Shown one piece after another: positions 4,982-7,670 of a stretch of 48,506 nucleotides of DNA. Numbering within the stretch: the stretch's first letter is position 1; each line of letters starts with the position of its first letter. A program made the translations under genes and the position numbers. The stretch is from a virus. Under the pieces are notes generated by a model. That model saw only the letters and a list, made by a program, of their open reading frames with translations, was not told the origin of the DNA and searched no databases. The DNA lies in UHGV virus genome UHGV-0991693. One strand, 5' to 3'.

Positions 4982-6793
4982 CTATTCGGCAATGGTAATG
5001 TTGGAAAGCCCGGCGAAGCTGCCGGACATGCGCCCGACGGGGGCCGCGTCACGGGCAACGGAAGGAGCCGCCTTCTGTTTGCGGAGGATATCGATCATAC
5101 CGGGCCATGCCTGCCGGGGATACTTGCGGGGATTCTCCCCAAGCTGCTCCAGCGCGTAGCCGTAGACGTCGGACGCGGAGTCGAAGGACAACGGGTCAAG
5201 TTCGCCCACCAGCCCGCGCACGTCGCGCACGGCACGGGTAAGGTTCCGCATATGCTCCTGCGCTTCGGCGACTGCGGATGCCTTGATGCGGGCGGCGTCC
5301 ATTGCGGTGAGAGGACGCGGACCACGGCGGCGGAATGCCCTGTCCTGAGCGGCTCCCTTGTCGTCCGGGGCTTCATCTCCGGTCGCGGGGGAATAGGCGA
5401 GATCGGCAAGGGAGTCGGTCAGCTTCTTTTTCTGCTCAGGTGTGAGGTCGGGGACGGAAGCGAGGATGCGCTTAATGGCCGCGTCCTTGTCCTCGTCCTT
5501 GCCGAGTTCGCGGCGTTCGCCCTCGGATTCGTGTTCCCGGTCAAGCTTGCGCCGTTCCTCGGGGTTCCGGATCAGCTCCTCACCGTACTTGACGCCCTCG
5601 GCAAAGGCTTTGCTCTCCTGCGGGTTCTCAGCGTCGAGGCCGCAGGCATCCATAGCCTTTTTCATACCCTCGGACTCATGCTCGCGGTCGAGCTTCCTGC
5701 GTTCGTCCGGATTGCGCTCCAGTTCCTCGCCGTATTTTACGCCTTCGGCAAAGGCGCGGGATTCGGCGGGGTCTTCCGCATCAAGCCCGCAGGCGTCCAT
5801 AGCTTTCTTGGCTTCTTCGTCCATCGCTTCCTTTTTCTCCGGTTTCTCGTCGCCTGTTGCAGGGGAATAGGCCAGATCGGAGAGAGTATCTTCGAGCTTT
5901 TTGGCCTCTTCGGGCTCCATGCCTTCGGACAGTTCGGCGACGAGCTTGCGGATGGCTTCCGCCTTATCCTCGTCTTCCGTGATGTCCTCGATCTCCCCGG
6001 TGACGGGGTTTTTCTTGTGGAGGCTCAAAAGGATATCCGCAAAGTCCTTGATGCCCTGTGCGGATTCGACTTCCTGCTGTTCCACCGCAGGGTCGCCATC
6101 CTGAGCTCCCCACCATTTCCTGAACTTGCCCATAAGCTTTCCTTTTTTCGTTGAAGTTGGATGAGAATCCGCCACCACCACGTCCGGCCCGGCCCGCCCT
6201 TCTTCGACCAGCGCGACGTGGTTGCCTCGGATGTTCCGCATGATGAAATCGTAGGGGGTGCCCTCGTAGCTGCCCGGCGTGAAATCCGGGTCGTAGCGGT
6301 AGGCGCAGGAGAGTTCCCGGAAGGAACCGTCTTCGATGGCGTCGATGGCGGCCCGATCCCACACGGTCAGCGGCGCATCCACATACGGCGGGTTCCAGAC
6401 CGCGCCCGTGCCCACCGCGCCCACGCGGGTGAGCTTCTGCGGCTCTTCCGCGCTGTCGATGTGGTGCTCAATGTGCAGCGGCAGCCCGGCCCATGTCTCA
6501 AGCGATGCTTGAAGTTCTTCCGGGTCACGAAGCCCGTAGTAAATAGCCTCGGGGTCAAGCCCGGCTTCCTGCCAGCCCGGAATCTCCCGCCCGTAGTATG
6601 GATTCACCGTCGCTTTCGTGATGTGCGACGCCCCGACGTGCAGAAAGCCGTTTTCGTCGGTTTCCCGCTGCGAGGGGGCCGCGTCGAATGATAGGCAATT
6701 CGAAGAATCTTTTTGGATCTTTACCTTGGGAGGTATAATTATAAGCCCGTCGCCCGAGTCAAAAAAACGCTCATTCATTTTGATACTCGACAA
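4982..6793 (-). CDS. Prohead protease/scaffold protein (Mu gpI / XkdF-like N-terminal domain) with internal tandem repeats and an acidic coiled-coil scaffold region
   Basis: 603 aa. N-terminal ~200 aa resembles the DUF2213/XkdF prohead protease family. The middle carries two ~48-aa repeats ([43 protein letters not shown]). It sits between the MuF-like and capsid genes. Confidence 0.6.
5490..5800. repeat. Diverged ~145-bp tandem duplication inside the scaffold gene
   Basis: Two consecutive nucleotide units encode near-identical 48-aa segments. A flanking shorter repeat [13 protein letters not shown] occurs twice. Confidence 0.6.
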
Positions 6794-7670
6794 TGATCTT
6801 TTGGGTTCTAGTACGAGTGCCGGGAATGACTTTTACAACCCGGTATGTCCCCCCCCGATTCAAGAGTATCTCCCCTTCGCTGCTCGCGTTGCTTGTTGCC
6901 CCGCCAAAAGCTGAGATATTTTCCAAACTGATTGCTTTACTCCCTTTCGGGACTCGTATCTCCATAACAGCACCTTTGCTTCCACTGAAACGGGAGAAGG
7001 CTTCGGCAGTGTTCTTATTGCTGGTCGAGGAAGAAAATCCAGGGTCTTTAAAAGTGGCTCCTTCGAGAAGTTTGTCGGAAAAATCTTTTGAGATTCCACG
7101 ATATACAGTCATAGGCTCTTTAGTCGAAGCCCTTGCAAATGCTCTGTCCATTCTCTCCACATCTTTCCGATCTCCTCTGGGGATGGGCTTACCTGACCGA
7201 AGAGCACTATTTACCGTCCGATACATGGCCCCAGTGTATTCCTTCATGGACTGCCTCTCTTCCGGTGTCATATCGAGCTTCGAGGCAGATTGAGCCTGCC
7301 TACCCGATACATACGTCCCTCCACTTTCTGTGGGTGACTGTGCTTTTGAACCGGAACTAGAAGTAGGTGTTGATTTCTTGACTCCCGAGGCTCTGCCTTT
7401 TGACATGGGGGAGGCACCCTTCGAGTCAGTCTTCCCTTGAGACGAACCGGTCCCCTTGCTTTTGGCTTCGGAAATTTTTCTCCCGTTGAATTTTCCGCCC
7501 ATACCCGCCTTAACCGTGCCGTTTTCATCAATCAGTGCCGGGCGTCCTTTATTCCCCGCACCATTGGGTTTCACGGTTATCCACCGGTCTTTATCTTGTG
7601 CAGTAATAGAGTTCATTGCATATCCTAGTCCCCGAACTCGGGGATTACCGCTCTGTATGTGCATTGGCAC
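6771..7670 (-). CDS. ADP-ribosyltransferase toxin-like protein (C2/C3/Vip2/Alt-type R-S-E ART) with an N-terminal Ser/Gly/Lys-rich disordered region; a MuF-associated cargo protein
   Basis: Motifs present: [14 protein letters not shown] (the Y-x4-Y-x2-N-x2-LR NAD-binding helix), TVYRGIS (catalytic Arg), SSTSNK (STS motif) and SSEGEILL (E-x-E). GC of this gene is ~48% against ~62% for flanking genes. It overlaps the 3' end of the MuF-like gene. Confidence 0.7.

Follow-up and report, generated by a model that had tools for sequence, protein, structure and literature searches.

The ADP-ribosyltransferase gene and its neighbours

The window (the whole 48,506-nt stretch analysed, from UHGV virus genome UHGV-0991693) comes from a temperate E217/Pa193-like myophage of Bilophila wadsworthia. 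Its head genes follow the order portal, MuF, ART (ADP-ribosyltransferase), scaffold (Table 1). The MuF-like protein is 260 aa long and ends at its own TAG (7625-7627), and the ART is read in another frame. The scaffold protein is acidic (598 aa, pI 4.8). Pa193 gp24, of the same family, is a virion-resident putative scaffold (PMC11456595). We propose that the ART gene is transcribed with the portal, MuF, scaffold and capsid genes. No promoter or terminator was seen flanking it on the coding strand, and regional totals were within the shuffle expectation. NCBIfam held no model for either the ART or the scaffold protein.

Table 1. Features of the ART locus, with coordinates in the window.
Feature	Position	Strand	Remarks and evidence
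ART cargo gene, most likely CDS	6771..7616	-	281 aa, ATG start, TGA stop; gene calls
In-frame extension up to GTG 7670	7617..7670	-	Overlaps the conserved MuF C-terminus; probably not translated
Initiation region	7613..7626	-	Read from the sequence, compared with the ART-less junction GACTAG TCT ATG TAT CAA
ATGAATGA, ART stop/scaffold-gene start, 8-nt overlap	6771..6778	-	Sequence; gene calls
Header module, aa 8-55	7452..7595	-	Alignment, pLDDT, profile search
Low-complexity S/G/K/T linker, aa 56-105	7302..7451	-	Composition, pLDDT, variation among homologues
ART catalytic domain, aa 106-281	6774..7301	-	Pfam, PDB sequence matches, pLDDT >90, Foldseek, phage ARTs
Catalytic Arg173 codon (VYRG)	7098..7100	-	Invariant in 27 homologues; aligned to Vip2 'tvyr'
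S196-S197-T198-S199 codons, S-T-S region (FSSSTS)	7020..7031	-	S196 invariant in 27 homologues; aligned to Vip2 S-T-S
E247-G248-E249 codons, ARTT-loop E-x-E (SSEGEILL)	6870..6878	-	E247/E249 at least 90% conserved in 27 homologues; aligned to Vip2 SEKEILL
Cassette, 930 nt	6689..7618	.	Comparison of ART-plus and ART-less siblings
DUF2213/Pa193_gp24-family scaffold/protease-type gene	4982..6778	-	Pfam, phrog, gene calls; first 30 codons came with the cassette
MuF-like head morphogenesis gene	7625..8407	-	PF04233 E=4.8e-9; phrog_324 E=4e-63
Portal gene, Phage_portal_3	8400..9944	-	Pfam
Integrase	31307-32359		Temperate phage marker

Start codon and gene junctions

The ORF listing of the window contains a minus-strand ORF of 299 aa from GTG at exactly 6771..7670. 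The ORF described in the earlier note is therefore real and intact, coordinates included, and only its start is likely to differ. The true start is likely ATG 7616, giving 281 aa. It has an AGGA 6 nt upstream and was the start chosen by the gene callers in the contigs inspected, and the identical 281-aa protein (PF03496, E=3.6e-27) was called on at least 24 metagenome contigs. Homologue N-termini lie only a few residues ahead of a conserved W. Longer gene calls exist, some members of the 90% cluster having 297 or 299 aa. GTG 7670 was rejected as the main start, since the homologue N-termini, the gene calls and the absence of a Shine-Dalgarno sequence ahead of it (none seen on reading the sequence) all favour ATG 7616. 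As this start lies 8 nt past the MuF stop, the overlap of about 46 nt with MuF noted previously probably disappears; it holds only for the mechanical ORF from GTG 7670.

In the initiation region, the AGGA (7623-7626) overlaps the MuF TAG. The ancestral scaffold ATG (7619-7621) has been retained and is now followed by CAA TGA, and the ART ATG (7614-7616) overlaps that TGA. At its other end the ART gene runs into the scaffold gene, and contig gene calls show the same junction (ART 3001-3846, scaffold 3839-5635). The earlier note placed the ART between MuF and the protease/scaffold gene as an ORF of its own, translationally coupled. It is indeed separate and in that place, but the gene to which it is coupled is the scaffold gene that follows.

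The ADP-ribosyltransferase domain

All four motifs that had been quoted as hallmarks of R-S-E class ARTs are present in the translation, and the Pfam family ADPrib_exo_Tox (PF03496) was matched far beyond chance (E=4.4e-27; 95.1 bits against a cut-off of 23.4; profile positions 9-190 of 196). Further matches were to phrog_802 'Alt-like' (E=1.9e-12) and to the PDB sequences of Vip2, C3, ExoS and CdtA. The AlphaFold2 model had a pLDDT above 90 for aa 100-281. Its Foldseek match in the PDB was C3bot (1gze, E=1e-13, prob 1.0, TM(target) 0.68-0.72), with further matches to Vip2, CDTa, iota Ia, ExoS and Certhrax. Both the profile search for the exoenzyme family and the structural comparison with C3 and Vip2, suggested as checks in the earlier note, thus came out in favour of its assignment. 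The catalytic Arg, Ser-Thr-Ser and (Q/E)-x-Glu motifs occur in order, and the conservation of the catalytic residues, raised there as a possible weak point, was confirmed among the homologues (Table 1).

Judged by sequence and modelled fold, the product is an R-S-ExE mono-ADP-ribosyltransferase of the C3/Vip2/Alt type with an intact site and predicted enzyme activity. The Q/E-x-E rule is an established predictor of the acceptor residue; applied to the E-x-E motif, it predicts that arginine is modified. For some R-S-E enzymes the substrate is a nucleic acid.

An optional cassette

Comparison with sibling phages placed the gene in a cassette that comprises all of the ART gene together with scaffold codons 1 to 30, where ART-less siblings have 21 nt. 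The indel is bounded by the start codon and codon 30 of the scaffold gene. These limits were taken from L070 aligned with L062, and the stretch of L070 compared was 100% identical to the window. The ART was present in 4 of the 22 contigs with an identical MuF protein, and in the other 18 MuF was followed directly by the scaffold gene. GC content was 48.6% in the equivalent cassette stretch against 65% just beyond it. The ART gene itself had 49.3% GC and a GC3 of 0.48, against 59.5-64.6% and 0.73-0.83 in the flanking head genes, bearing out the low GC reported for it. That it is acquired cargo agrees with the finding of a low-GC3 segment missing from most siblings with an identical MuF protein. 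By this comparison the ART gene is an optional accessory cassette of the head operon. No match was returned when the 9-kb head region was compared by megablast with 50,697 phage records.

The header module

The protein consists of a basic, beta-rich header of about 48 residues, a disordered S/G/K/T linker of about 50 residues and the ART domain. The N-terminal half had been taken as a Ser/Gly/Lys-rich and probably disordered segment. This description fits residues ~56-105 only, which are S/G/K/T-rich and predicted to be disordered, whereas residues 8-55 form a strongly conserved folded module. The linker had a pLDDT below 50 for residues 56-86, S+G+K+T made up 71% of aa 51-105, and its length and sequence varied among homologues. 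The header has the consensus W-I-T-V-x-P-N-G ... G ... G-M-G-G-K-F-x-G with 13 invariant alignment columns, a pI of 10.2, and three predicted beta-strands plus a short helix (pLDDT ~80). A profile of it (alignment A2) scored 96 bits on the window protein. A second copy was looked for in the window and not found. Searched alone, the header matched no Pfam family (E<=10) and no PDB sequence (E<=1). The whole protein has a pI of 10.1 and a charge of +20, and the scaffold protein a charge of -39.

A profile search (E<=1e-3) found the header in at least 1194 protein clusters, counted on representative proteins. It lay within the first 40 aa in 203 of 227 proteins (89%), usually N-terminal and followed by a low-complexity linker ahead of swappable effector domains. 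It follows a conserved A-[MQ]-D-x-x-[RK] leader. Partner domains included DUF5710, LPD1/3/5, PBECR1, Gln_amidase and Peptidase_C58. The header was also found N-terminal on giant DarB-like SNF2 helicases adjoining capsid genes, between portal and ART in one polypeptide (L018), and inside DUF2213 scaffold proteins, as DUF2213-header fusions (L001, L002, L021, L023 and L051). Several giant proteins carried 2-4 copies between their domains. Other header genes lie in baseplate clusters or between genes for head completion and those for the tail, so no specific link of the header to MuF or the head can be drawn. Among 50,697 isolated phage records, only 4 had it (E<=1e-3).

Between the window and L061, identity was 87% in the header, 86% in the MCP and 81% in the DUF2213 domain, but only 42% in the ART domain. 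The window ART domain was closer (59%) to that of a phage more distant than L061. In these comparisons the header keeps pace with the structural backbone, and the enzyme is exchanged. A full-text literature search found no paper with the header motif strings and none for DUF5710 plus phage.

Proposed loading into the virion and the alternatives

The strongest argument for the putative association of the ART with the virion comes from the header module, whose fusion to portal and scaffold proteins in other phages is circumstantial support. Since this N-terminal tag of ~50 residues is common to more than 1000 other phage cargo proteins, the virion probably takes up the ART and delivers it along with the DNA. 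We lean towards the view that it is an accessory, virion-loaded and injected Arg-specific ART like T4 Alt, with the header as its loading signal. In this reading the ART gene is started from the region where ART-less siblings initiate their scaffold gene, and it passes translation on to the scaffold gene through the ATGAATGA overlap. Late in infection the header would dock the protein in the assembling procapsid, via the scaffold, the portal or MuF. Being very basic, the protein may stay with the DNA and be ejected into the next host cell, where, like T4 Alt, it would ADP-ribosylate one or more host proteins to aid takeover or counter-defence. The cassette-borne 22-aa N-terminal extension of the scaffold protein was considered as a dock for the header and set aside, because Pasteurellaceae phages with upstream header cargo lack this extension.

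More tentatively, we suggest that the header (WITVxPNG...GMGGKFNG) could be a widespread, previously undescribed virion-loading domain, a portable tag for interchangeable effector cassettes. With such a tag, E217/Pa193-like and other portal-MuF-DUF2213 phages could load ARTs, a deamidase, nucleases and DarB-like helicases, and the window ART could be the simplest, single-cassette form. N-terminal capsid-targeting signals have precedents in T4 and in P1, where the N-terminal 30 residues of DarB (N30) were proven sufficient for capsid loading (PMC9024508). The four isolated-phage records with the header (E<=1e-3) did not include P1, so any link to the DarB signal is no more than an analogy.

It is rather unlikely that the header is instead an element of processing or assembly, such as a recognition site at which the prohead protease would separate cargo units, or a spacer that is scaffold-like or binds DNA, with cargo loading dependent on something else. 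The header does lie at portal-header-cargo and DUF2213-header-cargo junctions, it is strongly basic and preceded by the conserved leader, and the 2-4 copies in giant proteins fit a per-domain role (e.g. processing) as well as they fit a single loading signal. However, its position at the extreme N-terminus in 89% of proteins would leave only 10-30 residues to cleave off. Such a role would alter the function of the header only; the identity of the ART would be unaffected and its packaging still compatible.

The ART could also be made late and remain unpackaged, acting in the producing cell on host or phage proteins or nucleic acid during assembly; among such targets would be the scaffold, the portal, the terminase or a defence protein directed against these. 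Gene order by itself shows only co-expression with head genes. T4 ModA and ModB are non-packaged relatives (PMC5512222), and Iyer et al. 2022 raise the alternative of ARTs that counter immunity against the packaging apparatus (PMC9503650). We consider this unlikely, as it leaves unexplained why the header is joined covalently to portal and scaffold proteins and heads DarB-like giants, and why it is conserved like the backbone while the enzyme is swapped.

The word toxin had been used for this gene, and an antibacterial toxin of the polymorphic MuF-toxin kind would be carried by the phage to kill or arrest competitors while an immunity protein protected lysogens. A conserved N-terminal part followed by swappable toxin-type domains (Gln_amidase, PBECR1, ART, Peptidase_C58) would suit such a system, as would a temperate phage with an integrase, and there is a known MuF-ART, the EFV toxin (PMC5576092). 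L058, a relative that shares the integrase, also has a Macro-domain gene beside it at the prophage end. In the window, however, that gene is replaced by unrelated sequence, the two diverging ~285 nt past the integrase. The ART is not fused to MuF, no small ORF directly follows it (the next gene being the overlapping scaffold gene), and neither an ARH nor a Macro domain turned up in the window ORFs scanned. The label is doubtful for these last two reasons, and we regard an antibacterial toxin as quite improbable. A lysogenic-conversion exotoxin against eukaryotic actin or Rho, like C2, C3, iota and Vip2, is barely plausible and was rejected together with a classical moron: the closest solved structures are eukaryote-directed toxins and the host is a gut pathobiont, but the gene sits inside the late head operon without a promoter or terminator of its own, there is no binding or translocation component, the protein has no hydrophobic N-terminal segment that could serve as a signal peptide (maximum hydropathy 0.03 in the first 70 aa), and its nearest sequence relatives are all phage structural-module proteins.

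Relation to known systems

The proposed injected ART resembles T4 Alt in belonging to the same Alt/VIP2 R-S-E catalytic clade (R, S-T-S and E-x-E), in being made with virion proteins and in having a non-catalytic N-terminal part ahead of the enzyme. T4 Alt is head-packaged, injected and Arg-specific, and the same action is proposed for the window ART. The two differ in that homology is confined to the catalytic domain (aa 109-269 against positions 410-590 of phrog_802), the window protein having 281 aa against a 674-position Alt-like profile. Its N-terminal part is a distinct folded module of ~48 aa followed by a linker, and its gene lies between MuF and the scaffold gene, not beside baseplate genes (PMC5512222).

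The MuF toxins (Jamet et al. 2017; the E. faecalis EFV toxin) comprise an ART of the same Pfam family tied to MuF and encoded by temperate phages shortly after the portal gene; their C-terminal effector domains are interchangeable, and an 'ADP-ribosyltransferase domain and MuF-like fusion protein' occurs in actinophages. The earlier statement that MuF can carry toxin domains is in line with such MuF-ART fusions and with portal-ART fusions in other phages. Unlike these toxins, the window MuF and ART are separate polypeptides, the ART has its own header, and no small putative immunity ORF lies downstream.

Iyer, Burroughs, Anantharaman and Aravind (2022) described Alt/VIP2-family ARTs beside terminase, portal and capsid genes and predicted them to be head-packaged. 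Their account of head-operon stand-alone ARTs and portal-ART fusions fits the window ART exactly (PMC9503650). The header module, for which there is no Pfam model, was not found described in the keyword-matched passages of either this paper or Iyer et al. 2017. The polyvalent proteins of the latter study share the header, joined to LPD1/3/5, PBECR1, DUF5710 and DarB-like SNF2 giants. The window protein is not polyvalent, because it has a single effector domain (one Pfam domain).

Significance

Phage head-operon ARTs are already described, and the window ART adds one example to the Alt/VIP2-type class; the new lead is the header module. ART-plus and ART-less Bilophila phages with identical MuF form a natural pair for testing the benefit of an injected ART to a gut phage. 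The header may be a cargo-loading tag of general use, which is a concrete idea open to testing. Injected effectors in metagenomes could be catalogued with its help, and it could serve to load foreign proteins into phage particles. If the tag proved real, the capsid-targeting signals of T4 and P1 would have a natural counterpart, defined by sequence, in more than 1000 protein clusters, and phage-injected effectors could be predicted from sequence.

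Gene model and neighbourhood

The ADP-ribosyltransferase (ART) gene is embedded in the head operon, between the MuF and scaffold genes. The ORF listing contained the minus-strand ORF claimed in an earlier note (6771..7670, 299 aa, GTG start), and all four motifs quoted there were found in its translation. The 46-nt overlap with MuF claimed by the same note was not upheld, since it arises only with GTG 7670. ATG 7616 sits 8 nt past the MuF stop (TAG, 7625-7627), has AGGA 6 nt upstream, and was picked by gene callers in the contigs inspected, which carry an identical 281-aa protein in the same gene order. 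Longer start calls exist, as the 90% cluster includes some 297- or 299-aa members. Homologues have few residues ahead of a conserved tryptophan. The gene was therefore delimited from the AGGA-preceded ATG, the gene-caller choice and the homologue N-termini.

Coordinates of the ART gene, its neighbours and accessory genes
Feature	Position	Strand	Remark
Large terminase	10152-11633	minus	ART neighbour
Portal (PF06381)	8400-9944	minus	ART neighbour
MuF (PF04233)	7625-8407	minus	ART neighbour
ART gene as adopted	6771-7616	minus	ATG 7616, between MuF and scaffold genes
DUF2213/Pa193_gp24 scaffold/protease-type gene	4982-6778	minus	ART neighbour
Cement/minor capsid gene	between scaffold/protease-type and major capsid genes	minus	ART neighbour
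Major capsid gene	3309-4322	minus	ART neighbour
HSDR_N-domain protein gene	513-1583	plus	GC 50.5%
Bro-N-domain protein gene	1611-2852	plus	lower GC, same 513-2852 island
Further Bro-N gene	47016-47972		

The ART stop and scaffold start overlap in ATGAATGA (6771-6778). The ART is a separate ORF between MuF and scaffold, as claimed, but the close junction that could couple translation is at its scaffold end and not its MuF end. No promoter- or terminator-like site flanked the gene on the coding strand, and regional totals were within shuffle expectation. Together with the tight junction, this makes the ART a member of the portal-to-capsid transcription unit and not a self-contained moron.

Several other features of this region were recorded. 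A strong two-way terminator-like hairpin (10010-10036) lies between the terminase and portal genes, where several siblings (L047, L049, L062-L069) have an opposite-strand Endonuclease_1 (PF04231) gene and sometimes P22_AR_N or ORF6N antirepressor-type genes in place of the terminase end. NCBI labels one partial member of the portal 90% cluster “anti-CBASS protein Acb1 family protein”, apparently a misnamed Phage_portal_3 protein. Within its acidic part, the scaffold gene contains a 147-nt (49-aa) tandem repeat of 1.9 copies (5520-5803), and sibling proteins of 521, 570, 592 and 598 aa indicate that scaffold length is polymorphic. After the major capsid gene the structural operon is broken by two lower-GC genes, and the counterpart of this island in a relative (L059) also holds a PH_gly_zipper gene. 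Beside small unknown ORFs in the early/accessory region, a PAPS_reduct-domain gene (28168-28944) may function in DNA modification or counter-defence.

Enzyme domain

The protein matched ADPrib_exo_Tox (PF03496) in Pfam with E=4.4e-27 (95 bits against a 23.4-bit cut-off), establishing the family that the earlier note had proposed for checking by HMM. Sequence matches in PDB were Vip2, C3, ExoS/T and CdtA, and those in PHROGs were ART families, among them “Alt-like RNA polymerase ADP-ribosyltransferase”. An AlphaFold2 model, built with 27 homologues as input, had pLDDT >90 over aa 100-281 and matched C3bot (E=1e-13, probability 1.0, target TM ~0.7) as well as Vip2, CDTa, iota Ia, ExoS and Certhrax; the suggested structural comparison with C3 and Vip2 was thus borne out. 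Many phage ARTs in a viral structure library matched the model, some stand-alone and others joined to proteins annotated as “head morphogenesis”, “minor capsid” or “portal”. The R-S-E hallmarks previously noticed form an intact active site: among the 27 homologues R173 and S196 never vary, E247/E249 occur in at least 90%, and all of these residues align with the Vip2 catalytic motifs. By every testable feature of sequence and model the protein is an R-S-E family member, with predicted activity. Under the (Q/E)-x-E rule an E-x-E motif indicates an arginine acceptor, and arginine is accordingly the predicted acceptor here.

A second group of homologues, also found among structural genes, has another N-terminal module (WW..QQ.RYL..HPRS.K). 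In close ART-domain homologues (P0006, P0008, P0011-P0018, P0021, P0022 and locus L060) it reads ..LNAxYRLLADWWD.LSP.QQKRYLE.HPRSKK.. and is followed by a P/K/E-rich linker. One such gene, on a 254-kb contig, is surrounded by structural genes and is close to a sheath gene.

Header module

The N-terminal half had been described as disordered. This holds for the linker, aa 56-105 (71% S/G/K/T; pLDDT <50 for aa 56-86), but not for aa 8-55, a strongly conserved, basic (pI 10.2) “header” with a predicted fold of three strands and a short helix (pLDDT ~80). A full-text search with header motif strings found no paper, and its PHROGs matches were limited to an unknown family and the N-terminus of a 1881-position “DNA helicase” family. 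When 1.84 billion representative proteins were searched with a header profile, 1194 matched at E<=1e-3, of which 614 reached E<=1e-10. Among isolated phages it occurred in only 4 of 50,697 records, a rarity that may explain why it was overlooked. It lay within the first 40 residues in 203 of the 227 proteins in hand, and was present in 2-4 copies in 11 of them. Many regions behind it lack annotation; the domains recognised were DUF5710, ADPrib_exo_Tox, Gln_amidase, LPD1/3/5, PBECR1, DUF3560, Peptidase_C58 and NUDIX, a repertoire familiar from polymorphic toxins and polyvalent proteins.

Covalent fusions of the header to proteins of the virion interior occur in other genomes. Portal, header and ART form a single 1057-aa protein in a Synergistales locus (L018), and L041 encodes a portal-header-X protein. 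A 1203-aa Desulfovibrionaceae protein (L001) has the order LPD3-DUF2213-header-PepsinI3-DUF5710-scaffold, and header-DUF2213 proteins were found in enterobacterial, Gallibacterium and termite-gut prophages. The header is also N-terminal on 1500-2000-aa SNF2 helicase proteins downstream of methylase-helicase giants, a DarB-like arrangement which in Bordetella phage PHB04 adjoins the capsid gene. Stand-alone header genes occupied the same MuF/DUF2213 gap as in the window (L003-L006, L055, L061), the interval between head-completion and tail-terminator genes (L051, L056) or a baseplate cluster (L053). In Clostridia MAGs they formed tandem arrays of 3-5 consecutive genes (L026, L030, L042, L044, L045), one gene having two copies. 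All stand-alone contexts were virion-gene clusters, though not all were head clusters. Pasteurellaceae DUF2213 N-termini (L003-L006; MT.AQDK.E.D.NGWFEV) resemble the header leader and first strand (window 7580-7616), which may be chance or a shared feature.

Cassette and host phage

Backbone proteins fell in clusters annotated from Bilophila wadsworthia, and the window also encodes an integrase, ERF, DnaB, RusA and Mor/CII-type regulators. Cluster annotations and this gene set identify the window as a temperate E217/Pa193-like myophage of this host. The ART is polymorphic in presence: of 22 contigs with identical MuF, 18 have the scaffold 3 nt after MuF and four have the ART in between. Alignment of ART-plus and ART-less siblings showed a 930-nt segment (6689-7618) in place of 21 nt. 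Its left edge is the scaffold start codon, whose ATG is kept at 7619-7621, now before CAA TGA; its right edge is scaffold codon 30, so the cassette supplies a new 30-residue scaffold N-terminus. The ART gene has 49.3% GC (GC3 0.48), uniformly low across header, linker and enzyme parts, against 59.5-64.6% (GC3 0.73-0.83) in flanking head genes. The reported low GC and acquired-cargo status were therefore both supported.

The MuF/ART/DUF2213 arrangement recurs in a related phage, L061. Identity to the window was 69% for portal, 64% for MuF, 81% for the DUF2213 domain, 86% for capsid and 87% for the header, but 42% for the ART domain, while L051, with a much more distant backbone, reached 59% in the ART domain. 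The header thus behaves as a backbone element and the enzyme as an exchangeable payload. Cargo genes in L061 and L053 had GC3 below their neighbours. L061 also encodes a 1190-aa large terminase with an intein (Intein_splicing; 959-4531) and a DUF2213 scaffold with a C-terminal PBECR1 nuclease domain (7747-10179).

Proposed role

The best-supported reading is an accessory, Alt-like ART that would be made alongside head proteins and enter the particle by means of the header. Delivered together with the DNA, like T4 Alt, it would then ADP-ribosylate host proteins at an early stage of infection. N-terminal capsid-targeting signals are known from T4 and P1 DarB (PMC9024508), Pa193 gp24 of the DUF2213 family stays inside virions (PMC11456595), and PMC9503650 predicts packaging of head-operon ARTs. 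Net charges of +20 (ART protein) and -39 (scaffold) are consistent with an internal protein, though not proof of one. The earlier note's interpretation was largely right. The analysis establishes the enzyme's family, its intact active site, its place in the operon, the presence/absence polymorphism and the spread and fusion partners of the header; the packaging part of the interpretation, like ejection, header role and target, is what we infer.

A late intracellular role without packaging is possible, but would leave the header fusions unaccounted for. The header could also be a processing or spacer element instead of a loading signal, since it recurs within giant proteins and sits at junctions. 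Interbacterial killing, as in the MuF-toxin model, is weakened by the lack of a small ORF downstream of the ART and of ARH or Macro domains among the window ORFs scanned. In its favour, a relative with an identical integrase (L058) has a 183-aa Macro-domain gene (11280-11831) between integrase and tail-assembly-chaperone genes; the two sequences agree as far as a hairpin ~285 nt beyond the integrase, after which the window is unrelated and has a 76-aa ORF (~32586-32816). A eukaryote-directed exotoxin is unlikely from the genomic context.

Alt/VIP2-family ARTs fused to MuF or portal, or beside head genes, and predicted to be head-packaged, are already on record (PMC9503650, PMC5512222, PMC5576092). 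The window ART differs from MuF toxins as a separate polypeptide without an adjacent small ORF, from polyvalent proteins in its single effector domain, and from T4 Alt in being homologous in the catalytic domain only. ARTs encoded in phage head operons are thus an already described class; in contrast, we could not find a description of the header. The interest of the system rests mainly on this module and on the natural pairs of ART-plus and ART-less phages.
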